Assembly (NCBI GenBank): GCA_001761425.1
Contig: CP012986.1
Span: forward strand, 1,020,001-1,052,000
Direction of reading: 5' to 3'
DNA length: 32,000 nucleotides
Source of the DNA: Candidatus Saccharimonadota bacterium
Lineage (GTDB): Archaea > Nanohalarchaeota > Nanosalinia > Nanosalinales > Nanosalinaceae
Shown here in pieces: positions 14,441 to 32,000 of the stretch. Under the pieces are notes generated by a model that was given only the letters and a program-made list of their open reading frames with translations, ran no database searches and was not told the DNA's origin. Position 1 is the stretch's first letter, and every line of letters starts with the position of its first letter. The position numbers and the translations under genes are program-made.

Positions 14441-14499
14441 GCTGAATTGTCACCATATAATAACACTCTAACCAAATCTTTTATATTAGTCGATAGTGA

Positions 14500-14578: not shown

Positions 14579-17500
14579 TTAGAAGGAAAAGAGGTTTTGA
14601 AGGCTGTTCATGACCCCCTGGAAGAATCCTTCATCGTTTCCATGCTGGGGGTCGGTGGTTCCGCCTGTGATGACATCGAGTTCCTCTCGGTATATTTCCG
14701 TTCCTCTTGAGTCCACCGAGATTGATGGAGTGTAGCTTCCTTCTTCCTGAGGTGTGAGGTAGAAGTAGACTGTCTTTCTCTCACCTTTGTCCAGGATTAT
14801 CTGCTTCTCGCTCTGTGATACCCAGGTCCTTGGGAGGCCTTCGAGCTGTAGATCGTATCTGGTCTGGTTCTCGTTTGTGTTATAAAGATTTACCTTGATG
14901 AGGCCTGATCCTGATTCTACTGATGCTATCTGGTTCGGGAAGCTTTCTGCTTCGACGTCCATCTCCAGTGTCTCTACTGTTGTGGAGGCTGAATTGCTTT
15001 CTCCGGATGTGAGTGCTGCTATCCTGTACTGGTGTATTCCTGGATCTCTTGCTTCCTGTTCAAAGCATACTCTTCCGTTTTCTGTCCTGGAGGTTACTAC
15101 TTCGCCGTTTCTTTCCAGGATTACCTCTGGCTCTATCTGTGATTCGACGCTGGCACATACGTGGAACTGCTGACCTTCAAAGGCACTTACTGGTGCTTCA
15201 AGGCCTGTGACTCTTGATGTAGGGATTACTCTGAGAGGCCTTGAGGCACTTACTTCTCCTGCTGTTGCTGTGACTGTGTGAGATCCAACATCTGTTGCCG
15301 TGATCCATGTCTGGTAGTAGCCGTCTGGCTGTGTCTGGACTGAGGCTTTTGTTTCTCCGCTTACGTCTATCTCGACTGTCGTTCTTCCTCTAGCTCCGTC
15401 CACAAATCCATTGACTTTCAGGGCATCTCCTTCTACTGCCATGTTTGGCTGTTTACTGTATGAGAGCTGCATCGAGATGTCTGTTGGTTCTCCTGTTGCT
15501 GTTGTCCCACAGCTTTCTACCTGTACTGTCTCTGTATTTGAGTCGGAGTACTGGTTGTTTGCCGTTACTGTGAACTCCTCTGTCCCCGAACCCTGGACGT
15601 TGGTGAACCTGATTGTTTTCTCAACTGTCTCTCTTTCTCCAAGACTGAAGTCTCTGAGTGAGTTGATGCTTCCGAGGCCTCTTCCTGTCAGTGTGACGAA
15701 TTCGTGGAATCCTGCGTTGTTGTCGATTGTTACCTCTGCTGTCATCGTCTCTCCTCTGCAGACTGAGCCTGGGCTGTCGATATCTGTTATCTGGAGGCCT
15801 TGCTGTGTCTCATCTTCTGTGAGTCTGAAGACCTCTACTGTGTCCTGGTCTCTGTTGATATTCACTGTTTCTGTCCAGCTACCGTATCCCTGTTTCTGGG
15901 CTGTTACGGAGTATGTTCCTGGTTCAAGGTCTATGGTCGCTCTCCCGTCGCTGTCAGTGTCTCTGGTGTATCCGTTGACCGAGATCTCTGCATTTTCAAG
16001 CCTTTCGCCATCTACGTCCTCTACAAGAGCTACTAAGGTTCCCCGGTCCGTATCTCCTCTATCCAGGTTTAGTGTAAGCGTTCTGTGTTCGCCGGATTCA
16101 AGGCCTATGTTTCTTGCTTCCGTCTGGTATCCTGATTTCGATACTGAGACTTCGTATTCTCCTTCGTCGAGTTCGAAGTAGGCCTGTCCTGTGCTGTCTG
16201 TGTATCTTGTGGTCTGCTGTGGCCCCTGTACTCTCACTCTTGCGTCTGATAGTCTTCTCCCTGTGTCTGATCTGGCGTTTACTTCAAGTGTTGCTTCCTG
16301 GCTTCCTCCTACGACTACCAGTTCTTCGTTTCTCTGGTAGGATCTTGATCCGCATGGACTTCCTTCTGTTGTGACTTCTGCCGTGATGATGCTGTCTTCT
16401 TCCGGGCTTAGCGATGATGTGAACGTTCTCTGGGAGTTGGCGTCGACTGTTCTTTCACGTGAGTCTACGACCTGTCCCTCTACCTTGAATCTTGCTGTTA
16501 CTCTCTGGGATTCTCCGTGGTTTGAGAGGCTGATCTCTCCTGTGGTGGTCTGTCCTCTGTCTATTACAGGGTCTCCAAATCTTAGTCTGCTTAGTGTGAG
16601 GGAGCAGTCGCCGGGATCATCTCTTACAGGTACTGTCCGTGTCCTGGAATCCGTGTTTCCGCTGGAGTCTTCCACGACCAACTGTACATCGTAGTCTCCG
16701 GTTGAACTGTAGCTGTGCTGTGCTGTTCTTCCGTATCCTGACTCTCCGTCTCCGAAGAACCATTCGTACTCGACGATGTCTCCATCATAGTCCTGACTGC
16801 CTGAGGCATCAAAAGTGATAGTATCGTCTGTCTCAGGCTGGGATGGACTCCAGGAGAATGATGCCTGAGGCCTTTGTCCTTCTTCATCTCCTACAACTGT
16901 CAGCTCATCGTTTCTATCATAGGTCCTGCTACCGCAGGGACTTCCTTCCGTGTTAACCTCGATTGTGATTATGCTGTCGACATCAGGGCTTACTGAATTA
17001 CTGAAGGTGCTCTGTGATCCTGCTGATACTTCTCTGTCGATTGTCCGTACTGTATTTCCTTCTATCTTGAACTTCACTTCGAAGTCCTGATCTTCTCCGT
17101 TGTTAGTCACTGTTACTGAGGCCTCTGTCGAATCTCCTCTTTCTATCACAGAATCCTCGAAGCTAAGGCTCCCTATGCTTATATCGCAGTCTCCAGAATC
17201 TGAGATAACCTCTACTTCTCTTGTCCTTGTATCTGTATTTCCGTTCGAGTCCCTGACTCTTAGTTGGACGTCATAGTCTCCTGTCGAGGTGAATCTGTGG
17301 CTTGTTCTACTTCCATAATCATAGGATGATCCATCGTCGAAGTCCCATCTGTACTGGTTTAAATCATCGTCCGGATCTGAACTTGAGGAACCATCAAACT
17401 CTGCGGATTCACCTTCAACTACAGGATGTCTGTCCCATGAGAACCGGGCTGTCGGATCGCTTTCTCCACCTCCGTCCGAACTCTGCCACTGAATAGCTCC

Positions 17501-19525: not shown

Positions 19526-20085
19526 TATTCTAGACCTCCTTCCAGTAGATCGGGAACCTGTTCTTCATTTCGTGTCCCATATTTTTCAAATGTTTCAGCG
19601 ATACTATCATCGGTATTCTGCCATGAAGTTGACCTTATCTCAGGATCCTTCTCCTCCAGACTGGAGTAATCAACCTCCATTTCACCGTCCTCATTCTCAC
19701 TCATATAGTCATCTATTTCCTCCGCGAAGAAGTACTTGAAGGATGAATCAGTCTGGTTATCGGAAGGGTTATGGTCAAAGTATGCTCCAACAAGATCCCT
19801 TCCTTCACCGTCAAACATCTCCTCATACACTGCATCAGAAAAAATACTCATCTGATCAGCATCATTAAGTTCATCGTAGGCCTCCTCAAAACCAGCCCTG
19901 CCGACATAGAAAGGTCCAGGATCTTCTTCACCGCCTCCAGCACCGGCCGATCCTGAAGAACTATCTTCCGACAGTAGATCTGCTCCGCTTATAACTGTCG
20001 AACCGAGGCCTGTCGCTGCAGCTATCCCGCTGAGGCCTGCCACTTTTGCAAAATCTCTCCTTGTAATGTCTCCATCTATGTCCAT
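19525..20085 (-). CDS. Highly acidic hypothetical protein with twin-arginine (Tat) signal peptide
   Basis: The N-terminus is MDIDGDITRRDFAKVAGLSGIAAATGLGSTV. TRRDFAK is a near-consensus S/T-R-R-x-F-L-K motif. The stop TAA shares its last A with the ATG of the giant gene (TAATG), implying translational coupling. Confidence 0.7.
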   Translation of the reverse strand: MDIDGDITRRDFAKVAGLSGIAAATGLGSTVISGADLLSEDSSSGSAGAGGGEEDPGPFYVGRAGFEEAYDELNDADQMSIFSDAVYEEMFDGEGRDLVGAYFDHNPSDNQTDSSFKYFFAEEIDDYMSENEDGEMEVDYSSLEEKDPEIRSTSWQNTDDSIAETFEKYGTRNEEQVPDLLEGGLE

Positions 20086-20089
20086 TTTA

Positions 20090-20425
20090 TCACAGCCAGT
20101 CCGACTCTAGTATATATCCCCCGAGTTTTGAGATTGGACCATTCAGCTCTACATCATCCGGGTCATTGTCTATAACAGTAGCGTAAATATTGTTCGGATC
20201 AATTCCACTTATTTGATTAGCTATGTCCTGTTCATACTCAGCAATAGCCTGAGCAGTATCTCTACCCTGTTGAATTTCATCCTGCAATTGCTGGGTTCTA
20301 AACTGGATATAGTTCAATTCCTGTTGAGATACATTCGCTCTGTCCTCGAGATCGTTCAGTGCATCATCTACATCCTCCATTCCATCGAGGACATCAGCGA
20401 AGTTATCAGGACCTTGATAGTTCAT
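20090..20425 (-). CDS. Small acidic helical protein, shortest member of a three-gene paralogous family
   Basis: 111 aa. MNYQGPDNFADVLDGMEDVDDALNDLED aligns with MTSYQGRDFWADVKRGMEDLDDDLEDLAD (21390-21746) and YTDRNFWEDVQRGMEELDDGLDDLAG (20506-21267). The gap to the downstream Tat-signal gene is 4 nt. Confidence 0.65.
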   Translation of the reverse strand: MNYQGPDNFADVLDGMEDVDDALNDLEDRANVSQQELNYIQFRTQQLQDEIQQGRDTAQAIAEYEQDIANQISGIDPNNIYATVIDNDPDDVELNGPISKLGGYILESDWL

Positions 20426-20447
20426 GTTTACTTAATGGTGACAACAG

Positions 20448-20457
20448 ATTTAAATAT
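20448..20457 (-). promoter_or_regulatory. Candidate TATA box for the 20425 -> 14579 transcription unit
   Basis: The minus strand reads ATATTTAAAT, centred about 27 nt upstream of the ATG at 20425. No SD motif lies in between, which is consistent with a leaderless archaeal mRNA. Confidence 0.4.
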
Positions 20458-20505
20458 CTTACCAATACCACAGCGATCTTGGAATCAAGGTTATAGAATA
20501 CCAGA

Positions 20506-21267
20506 TTATCTGTTCTCAGCGTAGTTCTGGATGTCACTCATAGAATCCAGTTCGTCCTGTCTAAAACCAACGTCCTGAAGATCCTGAGCTGCCTGTTTAA
20601 CTTCCAGCCTCAGACCATCTAGATCTCCGTAGAGGTTGGACAGATCTTCTTCAACATCATCCAGGTAACCCATAATTGATTCTGCAGCTTCTCTGGCCTG
20701 ATCATAGCCTCCAACTTGATCGACAGCTCGTTCCATGACATCTACTGCCTGATCAAATTCACCGCTCCGTATGTAGCCCGCCAGATCGTCCAGACCGTCA
20801 TCAAGTTCTTCCATTCCTCTCTGGACATCCTCCCAGAAATTCCGATCTGTATACCGGGCCTGTTCGAACCCTTCAGAATTCATTCCTCTGGAACCATCGG
20901 ACATCACAGGCGCAGTGAGATCTCTGCCATCAAAAGGCGGATTTCCCTCGTCTGCTACAGGTCGGTCTTCGGGAATCCGTCCATCAGAAGTTGCTTCCGT
21001 GCTATCAGACTGTCCGTAGTTTGCTTCAGGTTCAATAACGTAGAAACCTTCCCCTCTAACTTTTATTTCATCCTCAGAAAACCTCTCTTCAGGATCTTCA
21101 TCTGTTCCTGCCAAATTAAGGCCCACGTAGTTCTTCCTGGTTAGGAGTTCTTCTGAGGACTGAAGGCCTCTGTATCTCTGAGTGCCTTCATCAAATACAA
21201 GTAAGGTTGTTTCTCTATCATCTTCCTCTAAAACTCCACCAACTTCTGTTACATGCCAGTCGTTCAT
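20506..21267 (-). CDS. Acidic hypothetical protein: unique N-terminal domain plus C-terminal helical domain of the paralogous family
   Basis: 253 aa. The C-terminal ~115 aa aligns with the 21390-21887 product and ends in the identical QAAQDLQDVGFRQDELDSMSDIQNY. Confidence 0.7.
   Translation of the reverse strand: MNDWHVTEVGGVLEEDDRETTLLVFDEGTQRYRGLQSSEELLTRKNYVGLNLAGTDEDPEERFSEDEIKVRGEGFYVIEPEANYGQSDSTEATSDGRIPEDRPVADEGNPPFDGRDLTAPVMSDGSRGMNSEGFEQARYTDRNFWEDVQRGMEELDDGLDDLAGYIRSGEFDQAVDVMERAVDQVGGYDQAREAAESIMGYLDDVEEDLSNLYGDLDGLRLEVKQAAQDLQDVGFRQDELDSMSDIQNYAENR
20520..20595 (-). repeat. 76-nt segment perfectly identical to 21404-21479 (3' coding end of two paralogues)
   Basis: Hand alignment finds CGTAGTTCTGGATGTCACTCATAGAATCCAGTTCGTCCTGTCTAAAACCAACGTCCTGAAGATCCTGAGCTGCCTG in both copies. 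Flanking coding DNA is clearly diverged. Confidence 0.9.
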
Positions 21268-21389
21268 TTAGATCCTTGTCGGTACTTTAGAACAATTTTT
21301 TATGTTTCGCTCGTTTGTTTGAACCAGATTTTGATTAAGAGGATTGCTAAATAACGCGGCGTAATAAAAGGTAAGGAAAAAGGGAGAGG

Positions 21390-21887
21390 TTATCTGTTTG
21401 CAACGTAGTTCTGGATGTCACTCATAGAATCCAGTTCGTCCTGTCTAAAACCAACGTCCTGAAGATCCTGAGCTGCCTGCTCCAGAGTCTGCTGGTGGAC
21501 TTCTAGATCGTCGTAAACTCCTTCGACATCATCCTGAACTGCGTCAAGATAGGTTGCTATTGATTCTGCCGTGTTTCTGGCTTCATCATATCCTCCTACC
21601 TGGTTGACTGCAGATACCATTGTGTCAACTGCGTCGTTGAAGTCTCCGTTCTCTACGTAGTCAGCTAGATCTTCTAGGTCGTCGTCTAGATCTTCCATTC
21701 CTCTCTTGACATCTGCCCAGAAGTCGCGTCCTTGGTAACTTGTCATTGTTGTATTTTCACCTCCACTAATTGTATCTGATGCTCTAGGTGGTTTTGAGCC
21801 TCTACTAACATGGCTGGCCTCTTCTCCGTAACTAGTCTCTCCATCCAATGGCGGGTGTCTCTTCGGGCCAGGAACATTATTACTCAA
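21390..21887 (-). CDS. Acidic helical protein of the paralogous family (start ambiguous: TTG at 21887 or ATG at 21746)
   Basis: The longest ORF starts at TTG 21887, with GGTGA 6 nt upstream (21894-21898). An internal ATG at 21746 is preceded by GGAGGTGA. It would give a 118-aa product (MTSYQGRDFW...) collinear with the 111-aa paralogue (MNYQGPDNF...). Confidence 0.65.
   Translation of the reverse strand: MSNNVPGPKRHPPLDGETSYGEEASHVSRGSKPPRASDTISGGENTTMTSYQGRDFWADVKRGMEDLDDDLEDLADYVENGDFNDAVDTMVSAVNQVGGYDEARNTAESIATYLDAVQDDVEGVYDDLEVHQQTLEQAAQDLQDVGFRQDELDSMSDIQNYVANR
21404..21479 (-). repeat. Second copy of the 76-nt identical segment
   Basis: See 20520-20595. Confidence 0.9.
21757..21764 (-). 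promoter_or_regulatory. Strong Shine-Dalgarno-like motif GGAGGTGA 10 nt upstream of the internal ATG at 21746
   Basis: The minus strand reads GGAGGTGAAAATACAACAATG. GGTGA motifs at similar spacing precede the starts at 14440, 24017 and 31049. Confidence 0.5.
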
Positions 21888-21926
21888 GTTTATTCACCGT
21901 GAGGTAATAAAAGATTGGTAACTTTT

Positions 21927-23147
21927 TTATAGGTTCTGATATCGATCCTGTAAAGTTTCAAGACCTATTTCTTCTGGAACTCCTCTCTCAAACTCTTCAC
22001 CCCTGCTAACCGCGTCAGCATAGCTCCAGAGATTTGCGGAAGTATCCTGTTCCGGTTCCTGGTTTATGTAGTCTATAATCGATCCCGGGGATAAGTTACC
22101 TTCGCAGAAAATCAGGTAGTTGCCGTTCTCTGTCTCATAGTCTTCCTGTAGAAGAGGTTCGATAATTTCATCCGGGTAATCGTTCAGCTTTCTGTCATAC
22201 GGATTGATCGCCAGAAAATCCCATCCTATCCACGTGTTTAACTCCTCATACTCTTTACCGTATTCATCTGTGAAGGCCTCAATGTGATCTTCTATCATAT
22301 TCTGTATAGCCGGATCTAGGTCATTCATATCTATGCCTTCCGCAGCCCCCTGTTCGAGAGCTAATTTTGCTTTACCTTCAGTAGATGTGCTGTCAAGAAG
22401 ACTTAGGTTCGCCCTATCCGTATCAGGATCACCGTATCTCTTCATACCGTTAACAGGAGTATCTTTGGCAGCGATAGTCCTCAGATCAAATTCGTGAGGT
22501 ATCGCATACTGAGCCAGATATCCTTGAGGTATACCGTCTTCTCTCCAGTCCTCCACCATTCCATCGACGCCATCAGGATAGAAGTATATATCACTTCCAC
22601 CGCTGGAGCTTCGAGGTTTCATGACAAGAGGAACATCTCCGATAATATCCTCCTGAACCTCCTCTATCACTTTCTCAACATCATCGTACTTCTGAAGATA
22701 ATGATCTACCGGCTGATAACCTGGTACGGTGCCAGGATCATCCCAGAAAGCCCAGTTCTGCTCGGCCTTATCACCCAGAAAACTGGGGATAGGAGCAGGA
22801 TTAATCATCTGAACACTTTCAGATAAGGCCTCAAAATCCTCAGAAGAAATATTTCTCCTGAAAGCAGCTGTCGGAAGAAAAGTTAGCTCACCCAGGCCTT
22901 CACTATCCAGTTCAGCGTTCATATCGGAGAGATCTTCGCCTCCCAGTTTAACCTCTTCCGATACATCAATATCCTCCTGTTTAAGGCCTATTCTGTTCAG
23001 CAGACCGTTATCTCTAAGAAATGTCTTCCTGTGGTTGGTCTTGGCACTGGCACTGTTCTGTGCGGATGCCCATGCAGTAGGCGCGTCAAAATCATCGTAA
23101 AGGCCTTCTCTGAAGTTAATTCTATCCACCTGTGAAACTAAAGTCAC
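21927..23147 (-). CDS. Divergent ATP-grasp fold enzyme (peptide/amide ligase-like)
   Basis: 406 aa with a GTG start. ATP-grasp landmarks appear in the correct order: PLVMKPRSSSGGSDIYFY (Gly-rich loop), YLAQYAIPHEFDLRTIAAKD...GMKRYG, and WIGWDFLAIN...NYLIFCEGNLSPG (the xVDxx...xLExNxxPG equivalent, with a ~27-aa insertion). Confidence 0.55.
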   Translation of the reverse strand: MTLVSQVDRINFREGLYDDFDAPTAWASAQNSASAKTNHRKTFLRDNGLLNRIGLKQEDIDVSEEVKLGGEDLSDMNAELDSEGLGELTFLPTAAFRRNISSEDFEALSESVQMINPAPIPSFLGDKAEQNWAFWDDPGTVPGYQPVDHYLQKYDDVEKVIEEVQEDIIGDVPLVMKPRSSSGGSDIYFYPDGVDGMVEDWREDGIPQGYLAQYAIPHEFDLRTIAAKDTPVNGMKRYGDPDTDRANLSLLDSTSTEGKAKLALEQGAAEGIDMNDLDPAIQNMIEDHIEAFTDEYGKEYEELNTWIGWDFLAINPYDRKLNDYPDEIIEPLLQEDYETENGNYLIFCEGNLSPGSIIDYINQEPEQDTSANLWSYADAVSRGEEFERGVPEEIGLETLQDRYQNL

Positions 23148-23189
23148 GTTTTCGTCGATTCCAAGAAGAAAAGATAGGAAAGGAGGAGC

Positions 23190-24017
23190 TTAGAGATCGC
23201 TCCTCTCGAGATCCTGGAAGTAACCGAAGACTTCTTCTTCAAGTTCTCCTTCGTCGTGGAGATCTTCCATGTAGGAGCTGAAGTCGTCGGATGCTCCGAT
23301 CTCGTCCATGTCAAGCCATCTGCCGTTAGGCCTTTCATCGGAGACTCCGTACTCTCCGAGTCTGAACTCGTCGTCTTCAAAGTCTGTTCCTTCAAGAACA
23401 TCCATGACCTGGGCCTCGTAATCGCTGGTGTTCTCAATAACTTCTTCGTAACCAACGCCTTCGAGCTGACTGTCTAGGGCCGTGACTGAGTAACCCATGA
23501 ATGCATCTCTGACACCATCACTTTCGTCAAGCAGGCCTTCAGAGAGGCCTTCATAGGCAAATTCCGAAGCTTCAGTCTGTGTCTCTGTCTGAGTATCTGT
23601 TTCAGTCGGAGACTCTGTCTCTGTAGGCGTTTCTGTATCTACAGGAGTCTTGGTTTCAGTAGGGGTCTCAGTGGAGTTATCTACCGGAGTCTGTTCTCCG
23701 CTTTCTTCCTTCGTGATCGGAGATCTCAACCTGTACGGGATCGCATCGCCGACAGCACCCCAAGCCTCGCCAGCCTGACCCGCGGCCGCCGATCCTACTC
23801 CTGCTGCGTAGTCAACGGAATCCAGATCTCCGTCTTCAGCGAAGTCCACAAAACCTCCAGCGGCGGCAACGCCCGCTGCCTGAAGGAAGTTTCTTCTTTC
23901 AGGGTCGAAGTTTCTGTTGTTGTCATTACGAATTATATCATAGGATTTTTCTGCGGCAGACCTAACGTCTCCCGGAAGTTCTGTAAACGCTTCTTTAGCC
24001 TCATCAGCCCAGCTCAT
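23190..24017 (-). CDS. Highly acidic hypothetical protein with internal Tat-like RRNFLQAAG motif and Thr/Glu/Pro-rich linker
   Basis: 275 aa. ERRNFLQAAGVAAAGGF lies at residues ~39-55. The linker is TETPTETKTPVDTETPTETESPTETDTQTETQTE (DNA ~23568-23695). GGTGA lies 9 nt upstream of the ATG (24027-24031). Confidence 0.65.
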   Translation of the reverse strand: MSWADEAKEAFTELPGDVRSAAEKSYDIIRNDNNRNFDPERRNFLQAAGVAAAGGFVDFAEDGDLDSVDYAAGVGSAAAGQAGEAWGAVGDAIPYRLRSPITKEESGEQTPVDNSTETPTETKTPVDTETPTETESPTETDTQTETQTEASEFAYEGLSEGLLDESDGVRDAFMGYSVTALDSQLEGVGYEEVIENTSDYEAQVMDVLEGTDFEDDEFRLGEYGVSDERPNGRWLDMDEIGASDDFSSYMEDLHDEGELEEEVFGYFQDLERSDL

Positions 24018-24110: not shown

Positions 24111-25127
24111 TTATTTTGAAACTCTGATATCCAGACAGACTCTTTTCACTGAAGGGCCTCTATCGCCTGTAACCGTTTTCTCGACGATTTTAAATTCAAG
24201 GCCTTTTCTTTCAGCCTCTTCACGTATTTCGTCCCGTATTTTCTTCCAGTTCTCGTTCTCCAGGAACCTGTAATAATTTATTACTCCTTTATCTTCTGCC
24301 AGTTCCATTGCGAGGCCTAGAAACTTGTCCGCTGAACCTGGTAGAGGCATAACGATTCGATCAAATTTTTCCGAATACTCTATGTTTTTTACATCTCCGC
24401 AGTAGGCCTTGACTTTATCTTCAATCTTGTTTCTCTTGATGTTTTCCTTCAGGTATTCGCAGGCCTCTGGGTTTTTCTCGACTGAGATTATTTTTTCCGG
24501 CTCGGCGTTTTTCGCTGCCATAACTGCGAAAGGCCCTACACCGGCGAACATGACGAGGACTTTCTCGCCTTCCTCTATCTTTGAGACTATCCTGTTTCTT
24601 TCAGTGGAAAATCTTTCCGAGAAATAGGCCTCTGTCGGGTCAACTTTTAGTTCTGTGCCGAACTCTCTGTGAACTGTCTCGGTTTTTTCGCCGTAAAGCT
24701 TCTGGTAGTCTCCGACCCTGAATTCTCCTTTGAGGCCTCCCTGTTTCAGGAGGATAGTCTCAATATTGGGATGGTGTTCGAGGATTCCTTCTATCGCTTT
24801 CTCTCTTTCAACTGTCAGCTCGCTGATTACTGCGATATCGCCGATGATCTCGTAGGAAGGTAGTTCGTAGTCTTTCTCCCTCTCTTCATATATAATAGAG
24901 ATGTCCATGTTCTCCTTCAGATCTGAGAGGCCTTCATCGACGAAGACAATACCTCCATGATCTTTTTCCAGGACTTCTTTTTCAGAGTACTCTTTGGAAG
25001 AGTAGGCTTCCAGTATTTTTTCTTCTCCGTTCTTTGAGGCCTTGAGCCGTTTTCCTTCTTCCTTTATTTCAAAGCCCTGTTCTCTGAAGGTTTCCTTTAC
25101 TCTTTCCTCGAGTTTTTCCTGTTCCAT
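24111..25127 (-). CDS. trm5: tRNA (guanine37-N1)-methyltransferase Trm5/Taw22 family (Met-10+ like)
   Basis: 338 aa. The SAM-binding block is VLVMFAGVGPFAVMAAKN, followed by EKNPEACEYLKENIKRNKI and IVMPLPGSA, typical of archaeal Trm5. Confidence 0.8.
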   Translation of the reverse strand: MEQEKLEERVKETFREQGFEIKEEGKRLKASKNGEEKILEAYSSKEYSEKEVLEKDHGGIVFVDEGLSDLKENMDISIIYEEREKDYELPSYEIIGDIAVISELTVEREKAIEGILEHHPNIETILLKQGGLKGEFRVGDYQKLYGEKTETVHREFGTELKVDPTEAYFSERFSTERNRIVSKIEEGEKVLVMFAGVGPFAVMAAKNAEPEKIISVEKNPEACEYLKENIKRNKIEDKVKAYCGDVKNIEYSEKFDRIVMPLPGSADKFLGLAMELAEDKGVINYYRFLENENWKKIRDEIREEAERKGLEFKIVEKTVTGDRGPSVKRVCLDIRVSK

Positions 25128-25174
25128 AGAAGAGAAAGGTGTGATTAAAATACTTAAGCCGTCCCGTTTACTTT

Positions 25175-25879
25175 ATGCTCCATCTTGTAGGCGTCGGACT
25201 TGACGACAAAGAAATCACAGAGAAAGGCCTCGAAGCCATCGAAGAAGCGGAGAAAGTCTATGCAGAGTTCTACACGAACACAGAGACCGTAGACCTGGAA
25301 AAAGTAGAGGAAAAAACAGACTCGGAGATAGAGAAACTTCCACGTGATAAGGTGGAACGCGAAGACAGGATAATAGATTCAGCAGAGGAAAAAGATACAG
25401 CATTCCTGGTATCCGGCGACCCGCTTACAGCTACGACACATTACGACATAAAACATAGAGCTGAGGAAAAAGGCCTCGAAGTCAGGATAGTTCACGCACC
25501 TTCAATCTTCACCTCAATCGCAGAGACAGGCCTAAACGTCTACAAATTCGGAAGAACAGTCACATTACCTGAAGATTCCGCACCTAAATCAGTAACTGAT
25601 TATATCGAGAAGAACGATGAGATAGGCCTCCATACTCTGATACTTCTAGACATCAATTACCGGGCGGAAAAGGCCTCAGAGAAACTTATCGATCTGAAAG
25701 AGGAGCTTGCGGATCGTGACGCAGTTGTGATCGAGAGAGCGAACACCGATTCACAGAAAATCTCTGCTGGAAAACTGGAAAACTTTACTGAAAAAGAAAT
25801 GGGAAATCCCCCTCACTGTATTATAATCGTAGGCAGTACATCTCACAAAGAGGATGAGTTCCTGGAGGCCTATCGCTGA
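25175..25879 (+). CDS. dphB: Diphthine synthase (tetrapyrrole-methylase fold)
   Basis: 234 aa. MLHLVGVGLDD...EAEKVYAEFYT...FLVSGDPLTATTHYDI...GLHTLILLDI are the conserved DphB/Dph5 blocks. Confidence 0.9.
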   Translation: MLHLVGVGLDDKEITEKGLEAIEEAEKVYAEFYTNTETVDLEKVEEKTDSEIEKLPRDKVEREDRIIDSAEEKDTAFLVSGDPLTATTHYDIKHRAEEKGLEVRIVHAPSIFTSIAETGLNVYKFGRTVTLPEDSAPKSVTDYIEKNDEIGLHTLILLDINYRAEKASEKLIDLKEELADRDAVVIERANTDSQKISAGKLENFTEKEMGNPPHCIIIVGSTSHKEDEFLEAYR

Positions 25880-26118
25880 TGGACAAGACCCAGGAAAAGC
25901 TGAAGCAGGAGACGGAGAAATGGCTGGAAAGACTTGATGAAGAGCTTGAAGGCCTTGACAGAAGCGTTGAACAGATGGAGAACGTTTTAGCGTACAGAGA
26001 TGATACAGAACATTTTCTGGAGCAAAAAGATTTTGTCCGGGCTTGGGAAGCTGTTATCTATGCCTGGGGAATACTGGAGACTCTGCAGCGTCTCGGGAAG
26101 TTCGAGAACGCAGATTAA
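25879..26118 (+). CDS. Small helical protein, DUF357-like
   Basis: 79 aa. The YRDDTEHFLEQKDFVRAWEAVIYAWGILETL pattern resembles archaeal DUF357 from memory. Its start overlaps the dphB stop (TGATG). Confidence 0.55.
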   Translation: MDKTQEKLKQETEKWLERLDEELEGLDRSVEQMENVLAYRDDTEHFLEQKDFVRAWEAVIYAWGILETLQRLGKFENAD

Positions 26119-26145: not shown

Positions 26146-27084
26146 ATGGTAGGTTTTATCGGCTTTCTTGTTCTAGCTGTTGGAGGCGGAGGTCTTGCAC
26201 TCTACCTTGGAGTTCCGCCTATAGCAATTGGAGCCTACGTTTTAGGCCTTCTGATCCTCGGTGCTATTACAGGTTTCCCAAGTTCAGGAGGATCTGAGGG
26301 CGGAGGCTCAGGAGGAGGAAGAAGTAGTTCCGGTAGTATTTTGAACAATGCGACGGATGCGGCAAACGGGTTTTTTGATAAACTGGAAGGTTCTAATGGT
26401 ACGGAGCTAGAGAGAGGTTCTTCCCGTTATCCTAGTGACCTTCAAGAAAGGGTTGTAGGCAATCCTGACCATCCAAGAAGAGATCGTGATGGAGGAAATC
26501 CTGGCCCTGATCCAACCACTTCTGGGGGCGATGAGGATATTGATTACACTCCAGGAACAAATGACGAAGAATATATAAGCGAGGATAATGATGATAATAA
26601 TATGTCAGATGCACCAGTTGAATCACTTGAAGCGGAGATTGAAAGAGTAATTAATGAACTTGGAGAAGAAGAGGAAAGAGAAAAACAGGAAATCCAAGAA
26701 CTAGATGAGGCAAAAGAAGAGCTTATCGCAGCCTTGAAAGAGCTCCAACAACATGAGGATCTTGAAGGATTCATCATCGCAATAAACAAAGAAGGTTTGA
26801 AAGGCAAAACTCCTGCGGAGCAATCTGCAGCTATTGAGAAATATGCAGAAAGATACCTAGGCCATGAACCCGGAATCCAAGAGATTCAGCAAGAGATAAG
26901 AGTTCTAGCAGACATAGAAGACAAATTTGAAACCGCATCTAAAGAAATGCAGGATGTAGATCAAAAGAAACAGCAGGATATGAAGGAAAACCAGCAGGCT
27001 GAAAGTGAACTTGCTGAAGTAGCTAGCAACCTTGATCACCTACTAGATGCTAGTCAAGAGCTCCAGCATTACTTCGGAGGGTAG
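26146..27084 (+). CDS. Hypothetical membrane protein: N-terminal TM hairpin, Gly/Ser tether, acidic coiled-coil C-terminal region
   Basis: 312 aa. TM segments are FIGFLVLAVGGGGLALYLGV and IAIGAYVLGLLILGAITGF. SSGGSEGGGSGGGRSSSGS lies at 26275-26336. A heptad-like E/K/Q-rich region runs from ~residue 160 to the end. Confidence 0.65.
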   Translation: MVGFIGFLVLAVGGGGLALYLGVPPIAIGAYVLGLLILGAITGFPSSGGSEGGGSGGGRSSSGSILNNATDAANGFFDKLEGSNGTELERGSSRYPSDLQERVVGNPDHPRRDRDGGNPGPDPTTSGGDEDIDYTPGTNDEEYISEDNDDNNMSDAPVESLEAEIERVINELGEEEEREKQEIQELDEAKEELIAALKELQQHEDLEGFIIAINKEGLKGKTPAEQSAAIEKYAERYLGHEPGIQEIQQEIRVLADIEDKFETASKEMQDVDQKKQQDMKENQQAESELAEVASNLDHLLDASQELQHYFGG

Positions 27085-27097
27085 AGTTTAACCCCAA

Positions 27098-27113
27098 AAT
27101 CCTCTTATTTTTC
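27098..27113 (+). terminator. Candidate oligo-T terminator
   Basis: AATCCTCTTATTTTTC lies 14 nt after the stop at 27084. An AT-rich TATA-like TTTTAATTATATT follows, ahead of the next ORF. Confidence 0.3.
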
Positions 27114-27150
27114 AGAACTATTATTAAATACCAGATTTTAATTATATTCT

Positions 27151-27423
27151 ATGAGAGATGTTTGGAAATGGAAACTGCTTGGATATCCTGCTGCTACTTT
27201 GACAGCTCATTTTACATCGACTTTTACCAGCGATCCTTTCGGTAATCTTGTAGGCCTTGCTTATCCATGGTCCGAGGTCGCTGTTGTAGGCCTTACAGGT
27301 CTTTTTGTCGGTGTGCTGGTTGATGAAGTTTTGCCTCATTACCTAAATGATGTACGCGGTAGCGGTGGCAGTGATATCGGAGGAGACCTTGATTCTGGTG
27401 GCGGTGGTGACCTCGATCTCTGA
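27151..27423 (+). CDS. Small hypothetical membrane protein with Gly/Asp-rich tail
   Basis: 90 aa. One TM (VAVVGLTGLFVGVLV). The tail is GSGGSDIGGDLDSGGGGDLDL. Its stop overlaps the next start (TGATG). Confidence 0.45.
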   Translation: MRDVWKWKLLGYPAATLTAHFTSTFTSDPFGNLVGLAYPWSEVAVVGLTGLFVGVLVDEVLPHYLNDVRGSGGSDIGGDLDSGGGGDLDL

Positions 27424-27869
27424 TGAAAGCTAGACTTGTAGTGCTTTCTGTCTTCCTGATTTCATCGCTGTCTTTAGGCTCTGCTGTACAGGAGTACGGG
27501 ATCGAAACCGGTTCCAACTCTGATTTTGAGGCCCAAGACTGGTTTGAAGCCCCTACGTACGATTCTCAGTCGGAGCTTCTGTTCGAAATACTTGCTCCTT
27601 TTGCATTCATGACCATCCTGCTCCAGATGATTCTGAAAAAGGCTTTACGGATGACATTTGCACAGGAAGACGATAATCCCTGGACCGGAAAGAACAAGCC
27701 CAGTGTTCACAAAGAATCCACCTTGATGGCGGTAACAATCTCTGCGATGCTTCTCGCCTCTCCTTACTGGACACTGATCCGGAAGATGGCAGCAAGCATA
27801 GGAATACTGACAGTAGGATTGCTAGGCCTTCTACTGCTTTACCTAGGATACCTCTTCATCAAAGGCTGA
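27423..27869 (+). CDS. Hypothetical secreted/membrane protein (signal peptide plus 2-3 TM)
   Basis: 148 aa. The signal-like N-terminus is MKARLVVLSVFLISSLSLGSAVQE. TM segments are LFEILAPFAFMTILLQMIL, LMAVTISAMLLASPYW and IGILTVGLLGLLLLYLGYLFI. Confidence 0.55.
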   Translation: MKARLVVLSVFLISSLSLGSAVQEYGIETGSNSDFEAQDWFEAPTYDSQSELLFEILAPFAFMTILLQMILKKALRMTFAQEDDNPWTGKNKPSVHKESTLMAVTISAMLLASPYWTLIRKMAASIGILTVGLLGLLLLYLGYLFIKG

Positions 27870-27915
27870 GATACGGGAGAAGGATTAAAAACTGTAAAAA
27901 GACCATTGTTTACCT

Positions 27916-29496
27916 ATGAATGGTCAGAGATCCAGGAAGCTTCTCTATTTTACAGGCCTTTATCTGGTTTCAGTTCCCTTAACCTCTGCCCAGGATACGA
28001 TTGGCGGTAATCAGGGAATCCAGGACAGTCTCCTGGAGTTCATAAACACCATCCTGGTTTTCAACATTGACTCAGTTCAGGGAGTCTTACTGTACTTTCT
28101 AGCACCGATCGCAGGTTTCTACTTCGTACAGAAAAACATGCTAAGTTACGGCTTCGAACTGTTCGAAGAACGAATCGACCGCCAGACATACGGCAGAACA
28201 GATGACGACATCCCAAACGGAATCAAAGGCCTCTCCATTGTAACATCGTTTATCACCGTTCAGATGCTGGGAAGAGTCAGTCCCGGAATACTTTTCGCGA
28301 CCGCCCTGATCAGCATCCTGCTCGGTGCTTTGATGCAGTTAGGCCTTCTACAGGAAATGGGAGGCGGCGGTAGCAGTAGTAGCTCTGGAAGTTCTAGCAC
28401 AGGCAGCAGTAGCGGCGGTTCTGGGAACACCGGAGGCCAGGGAGGCGGTCAGAGCCAGAGCGGAGGTTCGAACGTTAACTGGGGCCAGCTGGGACAGACA
28501 GCAGCTAATTTCGCCAACAACGTAAGCCAGAACCAAAAGAAAAAGCAGAACCAGAGTATCAAGGATGCACTATCCGTCTTCAGCTCCGGTACTGATATAA
28601 TAGATGCTATCGACCATTATCCTTCTGATTTCAGGAATCATGTTCAGAGGATTAACAACGAGAAAAAAGGAGACGAATCGGATGTCAAAAGCGTAGAGAA
28701 GGTTCTAGACAGGATGGAGCACATCGAGAGCGAGATGGAAGATCTGGAAACAAGGAGTGCCGATGACATGAGAGAAGCCAACTCCGGAAACCTCGACTGG
28801 GGAGCGGATTCAGAGATCCATGATAAAATGAACAGCTGGAATAATGATATGAGAGATCAACTGAGAAATTTGAAGCAAGAGCTAGAGAGAGTGAAAAAGG
28901 ACGAAAAGAATTCTATAACGCCTTTGAGAGATCAAATAGATAAGAGCTGGGAGAACATCCAGTTATACATAAGGATACACAAATTCGCTGAGAAACTTCC
29001 AGGAGGCCCAAGAAAGGTTGCAAACGACAATGATCTTCTGAACAAACTTGTAAATGAGGCCAGGAACAGAAATCTTGCGGGAAGCAGAAGTGCCAGTGCA
29101 ACGAAGAGCCAGTTCAAATCCAAACTGGAAAACATAGACAAATGGGAGTCACAACACAAAAACATCATAAATGACTTCGAGAAAGAGGTGGAAGACGAAC
29201 TGAAGATAAAAAAGACTGAAGCAGAAGACCTCAAACAGATCTCAAGTGACGATGACAAAATAAGAGGGGCAGCTCAGACCGTAAAATCTGCCATAGGACA
29301 GATGCAGAGCAGTGGCTCCCTCTCCAATACCGGTACGCCGCCGTGGACGCCAGACAACGTTAAAAACAGGATGAACAAATTTACCAGCCTAGGGAAAAAG
29401 ATAGACGACGAAGTACAGGACATATACAACATCGCACAGTCCGAAGGCGAATTCGAGAACGAGACCCTGAAGAAACTCAGAGAACTCTACAACTAG
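27916..29496 (+). CDS. Hypothetical membrane protein: signal-like N-terminus, 3-4 TM, long Gly/Ser tether, ~340-aa coiled-coil-rich C-terminal region
   Basis: 526 aa. The N-terminus is MNGQRSRKLLYFTGLYLVSVPLTSAQD. One TM is GILFATALISILLGALMQLGLL. GGGGSSSSSGSSSTGSSSGGSGNTGGQGGGQSQSGGS lies at 28357-28470. A K/E/N/D-rich helical region follows. Confidence 0.7.
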   Translation: MNGQRSRKLLYFTGLYLVSVPLTSAQDTIGGNQGIQDSLLEFINTILVFNIDSVQGVLLYFLAPIAGFYFVQKNMLSYGFELFEERIDRQTYGRTDDDIPNGIKGLSIVTSFITVQMLGRVSPGILFATALISILLGALMQLGLLQEMGGGGSSSSSGSSSTGSSSGGSGNTGGQGGGQSQSGGSNVNWGQLGQTAANFANNVSQNQKKKQNQSIKDALSVFSSGTDIIDAIDHYPSDFRNHVQRINNEKKGDESDVKSVEKVLDRMEHIESEMEDLETRSADDMREANSGNLDWGADSEIHDKMNSWNNDMRDQLRNLKQELERVKKDEKNSITPLRDQIDKSWENIQLYIRIHKFAEKLPGGPRKVANDNDLLNKLVNEARNRNLAGSRSASATKSQFKSKLENIDKWESQHKNIINDFEKEVEDELKIKKTEAEDLKQISSDDDKIRGAAQTVKSAIGQMQSSGSLSNTGTPPWTPDNVKNRMNKFTSLGKKIDDEVQDIYNIAQSEGEFENETLKKLRELYN

Positions 29497-29531
29497 TAAA
29501 ACTTATATTTGTTACTTCTCAATAACTACCT

Positions 29532-30593
29532 ATGAGTTCGGCCGGGGCTAAATCAGAAGAACAATCCTTTGTGTGGAGGCCTGATACAGGTATAGAAAGG
29601 CCTTCGATCAGCGAAAATGACACAGAAGATGATTCCAGTGCCGAGTTCTATCTGGCTGCTTCAGAGACAGATTCTACTTTTTCTGGAGTAAAGAATGCTC
29701 TTGAGGATCAAGGAGCTTCTACTAACACCATCAGGCCTTCTGATATAGAGCGGAAAGATGATGAAATCGTTGTTGATGGTGTTGAGGCCTCTGATTTCGA
29801 CGGCGGTATTTTTTACAGGCCTAATACCTGGTTTTCCGATGTTTCGCTGGAGGAACGGGTCGAGAAGATGGGTTTGATGGCGGATCTTGAGAATGAATAC
29901 GATGTTTGCTTCTATGGCGGTGCGCAGTCGGCTCTGATTTCCCGGGATAAGAAGGCTACGAAGAATGTTTACGAGTCGGAGGGAGTTGACAGTGTTAAAA
30001 GTTACAGTTTTGATGAGGCCTCTAATAAGCTAGAAGACGGTGACAGTATTGTTGCCAAGCCGCGGAAAGATACCTGTCAGGGCGACTGTGTTGAGCTTGT
30101 GGAATCTGAGGACGAGCTTGAGAGTTATATTGACCGTGTTCTGGGAGATTCTTCGAGGGATGAGATAGAGGAGCATCTTCTGTTTGAGGAATATTTTGAG
30201 ACAGGTGCCGAAGCTGATAACTCTGATATGAGGATGATCCTTCTGGACGGGGAAATCTACAGGAAGGAACGTTCAGGCGGAGATGGGATCGCGAACAACC
30301 TTGATAACAATGGCAAATACGTCGAGGCCCCGGAAGCAAGTGAGGAGGAGAAGAGGCTCGCTGAGAAGACTGAAGAAATCTTCGGAGACGGTTTTTATGC
30401 CGTAGATTACATAAGAGATGAAAAGGGAGATGTCAAAGTCCTGGAGAATAACGCGACACCAGGTACGAAAATAGGCGACGAGCTAGAGATTGACCTTGAT
30501 AAGGCTATCGCTGGAGAGGCCTACAGCGGGAAGATGTCAGCAGAAAATGGCCTAGAGGAGTATCAAGGCCTTCAAGATGGTGTAATTATTTAA
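29532..30593 (+). CDS. RimK-like ATP-grasp ligase (alpha-L-glutamate ligase family-like)
   Basis: 353 aa. It is collinear with E. coli RimK blocks: IVAKPRKDTCQGDCVELV, LLFEEYFE, SDMRMILLDGEIYRKERSG..IANNLDNNG, and FYAVDYIRDEKGDVKVLENNATPGTKI. Confidence 0.7.
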   Translation: MSSAGAKSEEQSFVWRPDTGIERPSISENDTEDDSSAEFYLAASETDSTFSGVKNALEDQGASTNTIRPSDIERKDDEIVVDGVEASDFDGGIFYRPNTWFSDVSLEERVEKMGLMADLENEYDVCFYGGAQSALISRDKKATKNVYESEGVDSVKSYSFDEASNKLEDGDSIVAKPRKDTCQGDCVELVESEDELESYIDRVLGDSSRDEIEEHLLFEEYFETGAEADNSDMRMILLDGEIYRKERSGGDGIANNLDNNGKYVEAPEASEEEKRLAEKTEEIFGDGFYAVDYIRDEKGDVKVLENNATPGTKIGDELEIDLDKAIAGEAYSGKMSAENGLEEYQGLQDGVII

Positions 30594-30629
30594 ATAAGGA
30601 GTAACTTGTATCATTTAGAGGTCATTAAA

Positions 30630-30767
30630 ATGCAGTTGACAGTACAGAGCATAATGAACAGGTCTATGGAGAATCCCGACCTACTTGTGATCGGATTAGC
30701 AGTAGGTTACGTACTTGCTAAAATTCAGGCTAGAAGAAGTGGAATGGGAGGCATGGGAGGCCTCTAG
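30630..30767 (+). CDS. Possible 45-aa single-TM micro-protein (not in the supplied ORF track)
   Basis: ATG at 30630 is preceded by GAGGT 7 nt upstream. The product is MQLTVQSIMNRSMENPDLLVIGLAVGYVLAKIQARRSGMGGMGGL. Its stop TAG abuts the next ORF start at 30768. Confidence 0.35.
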   Translation: MQLTVQSIMNRSMENPDLLVIGLAVGYVLAKIQARRSGMGGMGGL

Positions 30768-31043
30768 GTGATAAAAATGGGAAAGTTTTTCACAGACCAG
30801 TTCGAGCATTATATGGACAATATTGAGAACACTGTAAACGAGTTCGTATTGGTTGTCCTGTCGTTCGGAGCGATCATGGCGACACTCTACACAGTTACTA
30901 ACGGCGCACAGTATGACTGGGTAAGCTTTGGACGTATACTCTTCCCATGGGTCTCGATGCTGGCACTGATGATCATAGCGAGAGAGCTCTGGCTCCTAAA
31001 CAACAAAGTCGAACACTACATTAGACAGCAGTCAGGTGAATAA
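30768..31043 (+). CDS. Small hypothetical two-TM membrane protein
   Basis: 91 aa from GTG 30768 (alternative ATG at 30777). TM segments are FVLVVLSFGAIMATLYTV and ILFPWVSMLALMIIA. Confidence 0.5.
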   Translation: MIKMGKFFTDQFEHYMDNIENTVNEFVLVVLSFGAIMATLYTVTNGAQYDWVSFGRILFPWVSMLALMIIARELWLLNNKVEHYIRQQSGE

Positions 31044-31048
31044 GTAGA

Positions 31049-31630
31049 GTGGCTCCAACCCCACCAGGATTCGAAGAGTTACTCGCAAGCGGAGGAGAAA
31101 TAGGCCTCTTCTCCGGGATTCTACCCTTCATTATAACCTATACGATATTCTTCTTCCTGATAAGAAGAATAGGCCTTCTGGAAGAAAACAATGACACATT
31201 TGCAGCTATCCTGGCGATCGCATTCGCATTTTACACATCAAGATTCATCATTATGAATCCGGGATATCAGCAGTTCATGCTGGATTATGTCAGCCGTATA
31301 GCCTTGATAACAATAGGCCTACTAGGACTCTTGGTAGTACTTGCGTTCGTAGGCCTGGATCTCAGCAGCGATGTTCAGGGCCTTGGATATATCATGGCCT
31401 TGATAGTCATCGTAGCGTTCACGGTCTCAGGAGGCATACCCGTCATCGCCGGTGACGGTGCACTTGGACAGGTCCAGGAGATTATCAACTGGATGATAAA
31501 CAGCGGGACGATCTGGATACTGGCAGTGCTAGGCCTGCTCGGCTGGACATTGAGAGACAGCGATGACAGTGACAGCAATGGAGGCCTTCCAGAGATCTTC
31601 AGTGCTCTTGGAAACAACAGCGAGGGATAG
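31049..31630 (+). CDS. Hypothetical polytopic membrane protein (paralogue of the next ORF)
   Basis: 193 aa. GTG start with AGGTGA 9 nt upstream (31034-31039). GLFSGILPFIITYTIFFFLIRRIGLLEENNDTFAAILAIAFAFY aligns with the N-terminus of the next ORF. Confidence 0.6.
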   Translation: MAPTPPGFEELLASGGEIGLFSGILPFIITYTIFFFLIRRIGLLEENNDTFAAILAIAFAFYTSRFIIMNPGYQQFMLDYVSRIALITIGLLGLLVVLAFVGLDLSSDVQGLGYIMALIVIVAFTVSGGIPVIAGDGALGQVQEIINWMINSGTIWILAVLGLLGWTLRDSDDSDSNGGLPEIFSALGNNSEG

Positions 31631-31636
31631 ATCAGT

Positions 31637-32000
31637 ATGGGCGCATTCGACCAGATACTGACAATCATGTGGGATATGGGGTTAAACCTCTTTTTCCCAT
31701 GGCTTGTCATCCTCGCAGTAACCTACGGCCTACTTAACAAGTACGAGGTCATCAGCGAGGAGGATGGAGTCAACGGAGCCATAGCTATCGGAGTAGCATT
31801 CCTCGGTGTTCTAGGCCTTTCAGGAACCTCAGGAATATTCACCAGCTTTGCAGCTGCCATAACTTTCGGTGTTTTCGGAGTCCTAGGCCTGATGGTCCTC
31901 ATGGCTGTCGCAGGATACGATATCACAGAACACGCTGAAGACTCGACTTCAGGATTCGCAGTATTTGCAGCCCTTATAGGACTTATCTCATTCATGGCTG
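31637..32000 (+). CDS. Hypothetical polytopic membrane protein, 5' part (runs off the window; not in the supplied ORF track)
   Basis: I read frame 2 from ATG 31637 to 32000 with no stop: MGAFDQILTIMWDMGLNLFFPWLVILAVTYGLLNKYEVISEEDGVNGAIAIGVAFLGVLGL... It is paralogous to 31049-31630. The minus-strand ORFs 31375-31710 and 31723-31995 are its shadows. Confidence 0.55.
   Translation, partial: MGAFDQILTIMWDMGLNLFFPWLVILAVTYGLLNKYEVISEEDGVNGAIAIGVAFLGVLGLSGTSGIFTSFAAAITFGVFGVLGLMVLMAVAGYDITEHAEDSTSGFAVFAALIGLISFMA

Follow-up and report, generated by a model that had tools for sequence, protein, structure and literature searches.

What do nine consecutive genes build, when all of their products but one are predicted to lie in the membrane and only that one resembles a described family? 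The question is raised by the end (26146-32000) of a 32,000-nucleotide stretch, hereafter the window, of the nanohaloarchaeal contig CP012986.1 (assembly GCA_001761425.1, positions 1,020,001 to 1,052,000 of the forward strand). A first-pass annotation of the bare sequence had read the nine plus-strand open reading frames (ORFs) found there, here called g1 to g9, as a candidate undescribed envelope or transfer apparatus. The ORFs do lie where it had placed them, and hydropathy, on which our transmembrane (TM) calls for these products are based, finds TM segments in all of them except the ligase, g5, as it had said. Searches of the nine products against Pfam and NCBIfam gave no match besides g5. 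Since all but g1 have orthologues in many independent contigs, we regard them as real genes; even g6, which encodes only 45 amino acids (aa), is called as a gene on independent contigs as well. The reading that we favor, with a probability of roughly 55%, is that g2-g9 would form the membrane and coiled-coil accessory module of a type-IV-filament-like machine specific to the DPANN archaea.

This reading starts from the genes located just beyond the window. The sequence of the source contig (1.125 Mb, L001 in our set) extends 9 kb past the window end, and positions there are given as window-equivalent coordinates (L001 coordinate + 19531). A PilB-type ATPase, for which the first-pass annotation had suggested looking downstream of 32000, is indeed encoded there. 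Its gene (33663-35954, plus strand) begins about 1.7 kb past the window end, and the 763-aa product belongs to the T2SSE family (Pfam PF00437, 60.9 bits for a cut-off of 24.9). Among solved structures in the PDB, it matches GspE2 of A. fulgidus (4e-27), FlaI and CpaF (both about 1e-18) and, weakly, VirB11 (about 1e-5), and it bears a conserved N-terminal extension of about 300 aa. Abutting the ATPase gene, a second gene (35955-38144) encodes a 729-aa protein with about nine TM helices, likely a T2SSF-type platform similar to TadC and FlaJ; further membrane protein genes follow it. Two minus-strand genes separate g9 from the ATPase gene, and both encode soluble coiled-coil proteins: the Q-rich cc300 (307 aa, 32221-33144, L001:12690-13613), which scores 27.4 bits with the FlaC_arch model, near its threshold of 27.8, and cc143 (143 aa, 33198-33629).

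Is this proximity maintained in other genomes? With an alignment of the ATPase we retrieved 54 loci from GTDB species representatives, and ran a profile hidden Markov model (HMM) of each gene family against all ORFs of these loci; counts refer to the 22 nanohaloarchaeal loci with at least 8.5 kb of upstream sequence or, where indicated, to the 35 with at least 3.2 kb. The order g2-g3-(g4-type)-g6-g7-g8-g9, followed by cc300 and cc143 and then by the T2SSE and T2SSF genes, is identical in 21 of the 22 loci, each of g2, g3, g6 and g7 being found in 21 of them, and g8, g9, cc300 and cc143 are present in all of the 35. The same order was recovered on nine independent contigs, metagenomic or from metagenome-assembled genomes (MAGs), which were found through their g5 or g8 orthologues and whose ligases are 40-75% identical to that of the window (28% in the most distant locus). 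Gene order is thus kept across the phylum and, as described below, in part across DPANN phyla. Identity to the SG9 proteins (those of the window, g8 and g4 being identical to AQV86_05695 and AQV86_05680 of Nanohaloarchaea archaeon SG9) is highest for the ATPase (77-96%) and the platform (63-91%); it reaches 44-93% for g8, 38-86% for g9, 41-89% for g7, 44-96% for g6, 26-86% for g3, 36-78% for g2, 28-75% for g5 and 32-72% for g4, so that g8 and g9 are better conserved than the ligase. The conserved core therefore consists of seven genes, and g1 and g5 are accessory. The genes, their conservation and their neighborhood are direct observations, as are the paralogy within the cluster and the family assignments of the ATPase and the ligase, that of the platform being likely.

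The motor genes show some peculiarities of their own. The cc143 and ATPase genes point away from each other, with no more than 33 nt between their start codons (33630-33662, L001:14099-14131) and an A/T-rich element, TTTTAATTTA, in this interval; the disposition suggests a bidirectional promoter giving leaderless transcripts, and a shared regulation of the two genes. The N-terminal part of cc300, which matches no Pfam model, contains in SG9 and in its orthologues (L057:8677-9357, L071:6104-6766) a conserved tandem motif, G-[YF]-S-x-x-[ED]-I ... A[ML], reminiscent of a UBA or Ts-N-like helical module, ahead of a Q/N-rich low-complexity linker. In several nanohaloarchaeal genomes an in-frame intein of about 486 aa splits the ATPase gene, at L041:11491-12950 and also in L053, L055, L056, L058 and L060, with a larger insert in L054. 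The intein begins with a Ser after ...VTVED, ends in ...AHN|TLELP, contains LAGLIDADG-type motifs and sits in the conserved catalytic core; the SG9 ATPase lacks it. Finally, in an Aenigmatarchaeota MAG what follows the gene of the orthologous ATPase is not the TadC-like platform gene but a giant ORF (L044:12235-22233), which encodes at least 3332 aa and has a TM helix at its N-terminus.

The membrane proteins of the cluster are less diverse than they first appear. The first-pass annotation had taken g8 (31049-31630, 193 aa, five TM helices and an acidic C-terminal tail) and g9 (31637-32000, cut at the window end and running to window-equivalent 32128, 163 aa when complete) for a pair of paralogous polytopic proteins, and their paralogy is genuine (BLASTP, E 8e-4; hhalign, 95% probability and E 3e-8). 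With a profile built from g8 homologues we searched 1.84 billion cluster representatives (E<=1e-3) and retrieved 237, nearly all of them full-length matches of 150-245 aa, the named members coming from Nanohaloarchaea, Woesearchaeota and MAGs labeled 'DPANN group'. We name this family LPF. It corresponds to no Pfam or NCBIfam model: searches of both with 117 members gave no consistent family, the lone weak matches being to a 'pilin-like conjugal transfer protein' of a mycoplasma integrative and conjugative element (ICE; 3e-6, 1 of the 117 members) and to TcpD (7e-3). Its members are proteins of about 150-240 aa with an N-terminal amphipathic helix, a TM helix that carries L-P-F and then K/R, and three to five TM helices in total; the N-terminal consensus is LPFxLxFxIxYxxLxK, in which Pro26 is invariant and Phe27 nearly so. 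The family HMM scores g8 at 1e-44 and g9 at 3e-16. It also reaches g3 (27423-27869, 148 aa; a Sec-type signal peptide with a conserved A-x-A cleavage region, then a three-TM LPF domain) at 8.5e-4, and g3 orthologues at 1e-3 down to 2e-8; hhalign aligns g3 with g8 at a probability of 41%. We consider g3 a divergent paralogue of g8 and g9. The N-terminus of g4 is placed in the family by inspection of the motif and by a weak hhalign match between g3 and g4 (17% probability). Four of the nine products (g3, g8, g9 and the N-terminus of g4) would then share one membrane domain.

Several features suggest an N-out topology for the LPF proteins, with three or five TM helices and the C-terminus inside: the cleaved signal peptide of g3 and g4, and the cluster of Lys and Arg residues that follows the first TM helix. 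Such a topology would consequently place the helical domain of g4 and the acidic tail of g8 in the cytoplasm, and the amphipathic N-terminal helix, which is short, outside the cell. Furthermore, a 156-aa LPF protein of a non-halophilic DPANN contig (L071) ends in a strongly basic coiled-coil tail, which agrees with an inside C-terminus. The AlphaFold2 model of g8 obtained with 117 diverse homologues is all-helical and of good predicted confidence (pLDDT 87.5); the one obtained with 22 close homologues (pLDDT 59) was unusable. Foldseek searches of the g8 model against the PDB and BFVD found nothing at E<=0.001, the best matches having E values of about 1-2 and TM-scores below 0.3.

The association of LPF genes with the ATPase is also found outside the Nanohaloarchaeota. 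MAGs of Aenigmatarchaeota and Nanoarchaeota encode an orthologous ATPase (51-57% identity over about 750 aa), and in the Aenigmatarchaeota loci L052, L057, L059 and L062, as well as in L048 and L068, its gene is preceded at a distance of 1.5-4 kb by two to four LPF genes in tandem, which come before the coiled-coil pair. In L071 the locus is rearranged, and nevertheless holds together T2SSF, T2SSE, cc143, cc300, a signal-peptide LPF protein of the g3 type, the coiled-coil-tailed LPF protein and three plain LPF proteins. We argue for a functional link on the grounds that the full set stays together through this rearrangement.

A number of points weigh against this argument. The evidence that links g2-g9 functionally to the motor is gene neighborhood throughout, and a conserved neighborhood is in itself no proof of shared function: frozen synteny in reduced genomes can mimic functional linkage, as the housekeeping neighbors of the cluster persist alike. 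Indeed, DphB, DUF357 and Trm5 genes are kept beside LPF genes just as persistently, even across phyla. LPF and motor genes can also occur apart, since a Woesearchaeota contig contains three tandem LPF genes and no T2SSE gene within 10 kb, and since the loci L044, L049 and L069 (Aenigmatarchaeota/Nanoarchaeota) carry the ATPase without upstream LPF genes. The platform protein matches PF00482 (T2SSF) in two stretches with 22.3 bits, below the cut-off of 25.2, and its orthologues give weak or faint T2SSF matches. The LPF proteins lack a conserved charged residue in their TM helices as well as a recognizable fold relative, so that the role of the family cannot be read from its sequence. At the level of transcription, TATA-like A/T boxes are found 20-30 nt before the next start in the g1-g2, g3-g4 and g4-g5 gaps (27085-27150, 27870-27915 and 29497-29531), the first of which also contains a T-tract; the nine genes may thus form several transcription units rather than one operon.

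A rival explanation would be an independent DPANN envelope or membrane-homeostasis complex, engaged for instance in lipid or nutrient acquisition or in S-layer anchoring, with its adjacency to the ATPase due to frozen gene order. The translation-related DphB, DUF357 and Trm5, which surely have nothing to do with a pilus, are retained in 17-18 of the 22 loci and, in other DPANN contigs, adjoin LPF genes in three different arrangements; the Woesearchaeota contig shows that LPF genes can do without a T2SSE gene nearby; and the two opposite-strand genes which divide the cluster from the ATPase gene mean that the whole is not one operon. However, LPF arrays, coiled-coil pair and ATPase/platform genes are found together across phyla and through an inversion, the g4-type fusions of an LPF domain to a coiled coil and the additional coiled-coil proteins in the middle of the cluster match the coiled-coil theme on the ATPase side, and neither Pfam nor NCBIfam reveals a transporter or enzyme signature. 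We hold such an independent complex to be the main rival, and a rather unlikely one.

If the module does belong to a type-IV-filament-like machine, where is the filament subunit? A scan of all ORFs of the 32-kb window and of 8.6 kb downstream, combining a FlaFind-type pattern with a search for the hydrophobic stretch, found no class III signal-peptide pilin in these 41 kb, the sole match being a spurious antisense ORF; the small pilin-like protein that the first-pass annotation had imagined in the cluster thus lacks the class III signal peptide. Pfam pilin families are likewise absent among the cluster and downstream products, and general Pfam scans of the window and downstream products showed no prepilin peptidase (PibD/FlaK/TadV). 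This absence fits published remarks on DPANN systems (PMC4858521, PMC9563170), whose pilins are reported as unidentified. One could accordingly imagine that what the motor exports or assembles is the LPF proteins, or g2, g6 and g7. They would be non-canonical filament or channel subunits which replace class III pilins, for example in an intercellular bridge or nanotube of the kind observed between DPANN cells and hosts. The arrangement of LPF genes in tandem arrays of two to four paralogues recalls that often seen with major and minor pilin genes, and one family member (1 of 117) weakly matches the mycoplasma ICE pilin-like model. Yet proteins with three to five TM helices are unlike the known subunits of type IV filaments, which are extracted by a single N-terminal helix, the lone NCBIfam match may reflect mere hydrophobic composition, and pilins may be encoded elsewhere, as FlaF and PilA are in a different locus in published work (PMC11291902). 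We judge this substrate role to be decidedly unlikely.

The initial proposal had likened the cluster to an inner-membrane sub-assembly of a conjugation or DNA-transfer system, made of a VirB2-like protein, small TM proteins and a VirB6/TrbL-like protein. What can still be said for it is that the T2SSE Pfam family includes VirB11, whose structures are weak matches of our ATPase, and that single LPF members weakly match the TcpD and ICE pilin-like models. However, VirB4, VirD4, FtsK, HerA, a relaxase, VirB6/TrbL and VirB8-10 give no signal in the cluster or up to 9 kb downstream, and the VirB4, VirD4, FtsK-type and relaxase Pfam families are absent from the called genes of the related contigs too. 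With E values of 1e-18 to 4e-27, GspE2, FlaI and CpaF are far nearer to the ATPase, and its pairing with a T2SSF-like partner is the hallmark of type IV filament systems; for this reason we prefer a type-IV-filament system to a conjugative one. Moreover, the whole phylum has the locus and has conserved it vertically, whereas a mobile element would show a patchy distribution. The analogy with type IV secretion does not survive these results, and a conjugative function appears highly improbable.

How could an accessory module of a type-IV-filament-like machine operate? We infer the physical association of its components, their topology and their role, as well as the substrate of the ligase, and the following scheme is proposed on that basis. 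The LPF proteins together with g2, g6 and g7 would form a hetero-oligomeric membrane scaffold around the platform protein. On the cytoplasmic side, the helical domain of g4 and cc300/cc143, plus lineage-specific coiled coils, might couple this scaffold to the ATPase, in a manner modeled on FlaX or FlaC/D/E of archaella, and ATP hydrolysis would then drive the assembly or export of a surface structure. The products of g1 and g5 would be clade-specific additions.

The g4 gene (27916-29496) encodes a 526-aa protein in which a signal peptide precedes an LPF-like membrane domain; a Gly/Ser linker of about 40 aa then leads to a helical domain of about 330 aa. The first-pass annotation had noticed that g4 and the 312-aa product of g1 (26146-27084; a pair of TM helices at the N-terminus, then a Gly/Ser tether and a helical region of acidic character) share a tether followed by a heptad-like helical region, which composition and periodicity bear out. 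The tether spans residues 47-65 in g1 and 149-185 in g4, where it lies inside a stretch (149-195) with 70% Gly + Ser, and the regions that follow show a significant hydrophobic periodicity of 3.5 residues (z 4-6.5). Homology between the two proteins was considered and rejected, as they have no sequence similarity and only the architecture in common.

The two genes also differ in their distribution. Homologues of g4, every one annotated as hypothetical, are confined to the Nanohaloarchaeota (31-74% identity), and g4 is detectable in 16 of the 22 loci; the remaining loci encode proteins of the same architecture, of 488-800 aa. Indeed, no locus lacks, between g3 and g6, at least one gene for a protein of 488-800 aa that combines a signal peptide, TM helices and a long helical domain; the ligase or extra soluble coiled-coil proteins (173-757 aa) are variably encoded there as well. 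The architecture of g4 is thus core and its sequence fast-evolving. In the g4-type proteins the signal peptide is conserved, with cleavage at Ala|Gln, and the same Pro-Phe helix as in the LPF family follows it; by analogy with the topology of g3 and with the basic tail of the small g4-like protein of L071, the coiled-coil domain of g4 is probably cytoplasmic. As for g1, it is a hypervariable, lineage-specific accessory, conserved only in its N-terminal TM region and only in six loci of the closest clade, where the proteins range from about 310 to 1040 aa; other nanohaloarchaea have nothing between the DUF357 gene and g2.

The three remaining core genes encode small membrane proteins, between which and the other cluster products hhalign detects no family relationship. 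The 90-aa product of g2 (27151-27423) has a conserved PWK N-terminus, one strong TM helix and a Gly/Asp-rich C-terminal tail, and this Gly/Asp(Phe) tail is conserved. That of g6 (30630-30767, in an ORF that opens at a TTG at 30606) is a 45-aa micro-protein with a single TM helix, an Arg-rich stop-transfer sequence and a Gly/Met tail. The third, g7 (30777-31043), gives a two-TM protein of 88 aa (91 aa from the GTG at 30768), in which the second helix is very conserved (MLALMIIARELWLLN) and the C-terminus is Gly-Glu in most loci.

The only enzyme of the cluster, g5 (29532-30593, 353 aa), is a RimK-type ATP-grasp ligase, as had been proposed at the outset: it scores 42 bits with PF08443 (cut-off 21), and its nearest solved structure is E. 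coli RimK (profile E 7e-8), aligned over residues 138-332, while phmmer against the PDB found nothing. Residues of the catalytic type (K176, E219/E220, D232-R234, D292, E305 and N307) are invariant in 13 orthologues. The N-terminal domain of about 135 residues is unmatched and unrelated to RimK. With the NCBIfam rimK_fam model g5 scores 45.5 bits, under the cut-off of 143, and its best NCBIfam scores of 40-45 bits are to be compared with equivalog cut-offs of 143-350, which rules it out as an equivalog of RimK, CofF, MptN or LysX. The family is restricted to 23 nanohaloarchaeal protein clusters; 10 of the 22 loci have g5, and its distribution on the g8+g9 tree is patchy.

Which component could this ligase modify? 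Since g5 has neither a signal peptide nor a TM segment, its substrate is expected to be cytoplasmic. The C-terminal Gly-Glu of g7 made it a candidate, which we rejected because the dipeptide is equally kept in genomes without g5. Among 19 loci that have g5, about 16 encode a g8 whose tail terminates in E or EG, against 2 of the 22 that lack the ligase; these loci are phylogenetically non-independent, and two of four sister pairs disagree. The g8 tail would be the best lead, and is a lead only. Probably, g5 adds amino acids, likely Glu, to the cytoplasmic C-terminal tail of a component of the module.

The layout of the cluster is compact. The tight junctions reported in the first-pass annotation were found again on measurement: g2 and g3 overlap by 1 nt, and the gaps are of 9 nt between g6 and g7 (0 nt from the GTG start), 5 nt between g7 and g8 and 6 nt between g8 and g9. 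Directly upstream lie, on the plus strand, a diphthine-synthase-like methylase gene (25175-25879) and a DUF357 gene (25879-26118), and on the minus strand the archaeal housekeeping gene Trm5/TYW2 (24111-25127); methylase and DUF357 are the neighbors retained in 17-18 of the 22 loci. Genes of this trio adjoin LPF genes or the ATPase gene in at least three arrangements (window 24111-26118; L015:4690-6933; L071:11172-12755; L044:5383-6129), with no obvious functional reason for their staying there.

Farther upstream, the minus-strand locus at 12680-24017 encodes a 1648-aa surface protein with PKD and CarboxypepD_reg domains, an Ig-like protein of 586 aa, another that bears a Tat-type signal, and small ones that weakly match WXG100, LXG or YtxH. 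An ATP-grasp gene mirroring g5 had been announced in this locus (12.7-24 kb); Pfam detects none among the eight of its proteins that were scanned, and the 406-aa candidate (21927-23147) is unlike g5. The proteome of the window is acidic, and its GC content is about 46%.

Direct contact with a host cell is a condition on which DPANN archaea depend, and cryo-electron tomography (cryo-ET) has described bridges, nanotubes and attachment organelles in these organisms. The cryo-ET papers on other DPANN archaea (PMC11420986, PMC11329633) name no pilus-type or secretion genes. Nanohaloarchaeota are on record with Tad-like clusters in which no pilin is annotated (Zhao et al. 2022, PMC9563170), and DPANN cluster-2 with a pair of conserved loci that encode a CpaF ATPase, TadC and coiled-coil proteins, several of the proteins from these loci being detected by proteomics in Ca. 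Nanohaloarchaeum antarcticus (Hamm et al. 2024, Nat Commun, PMC11291902). What appears to be new here is the LPF family and the membrane module, the neighboring ATPase/TadC/coiled-coil locus having been noted already. The idea of an undescribed envelope apparatus hence holds in part: the ATPase and the conserved gene order support it, whereas g1 and g5 are lineage-specific and the motor locus was on record (PMC11291902). In the literature that we searched, neither the LPF family nor the g2-g9 module is described, although an earlier description elsewhere is possible.

What accompanies the most conserved pilus-type ATPase of these organisms can now be listed part by part: the LPF family, in tandem copies which include signal-peptide and coiled-coil-fused variants, three micro-proteins and two coiled-coil proteins. 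These candidate parts bear on the machinery used by DPANN archaea for host attachment or transfer, and the patchy RimK-like ligase hints at C-terminal amino-acid tailing of a membrane component. A bolder idea, unlikely though worth stating, is that the LPF array, g2, g6, g7 and the coiled coils make up the membrane core of a DPANN host-interaction machine that has no canonical pilins. If this were true, the machine could build or gate a cytoplasmic bridge or nanotube through which host material is taken, and the LPF proteins would be a new class of assembled or channel-forming subunit.

How does the locus compare with known systems? With the archaellum it shares an ATPase similar to FlaI, a platform similar to FlaJ and, in the 307-aa coiled-coil protein, the near-threshold FlaC_arch match; unlike the archaellum, it has no archaellin, FlaF/FlaG or FlaH that Pfam could recognize in the window or downstream genes, and its LPF proteins have no archaellum counterpart. 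As to RimK and the related tail ligases CofF, MptN and LysX, the C-terminal half of g5, which holds the ATP-grasp, can be aligned with RimK, and the alignment covers the E-x-N and Asp motifs that bind Mg/ATP; g5 differs in its place within a membrane-protein operon, in its scores below the cut-offs and in its unrelated N-terminus. The SG9 genes past the window end fit the description of a CpaF/T2SSE ATPase with TadC and coiled-coil proteins given by Hamm et al. (PMC11291902), whose main text is silent on the upstream membrane operon, the LPF family and the ATP-grasp gene; the ATP-grasp/RimK gene is not mentioned in the supplements examined either. The archaeal type IV pilus and Tad-like systems, finally, differ from our locus in that here no class III pilin or prepilin peptidase is seen nearby, the ATPase has its extension of about 300 aa, and two to four LPF proteins and three micro-proteins occur that are not among the listed pilus accessories. 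In subclade 4F of these pili, that of halobacteria, a coiled-coil accessory has been described, and the ATPase of this subclade also occurs in nanoarchaea, where pilins could not be identified (Makarova, Koonin and Albers 2016, PMC4858521). The likeness thus lies in the pairing of two genes, one for a secretion ATPase and one for a polytopic protein similar to TadC and FlaJ, and, with subclade 4F, in a cytoplasmic coiled-coil accessory.

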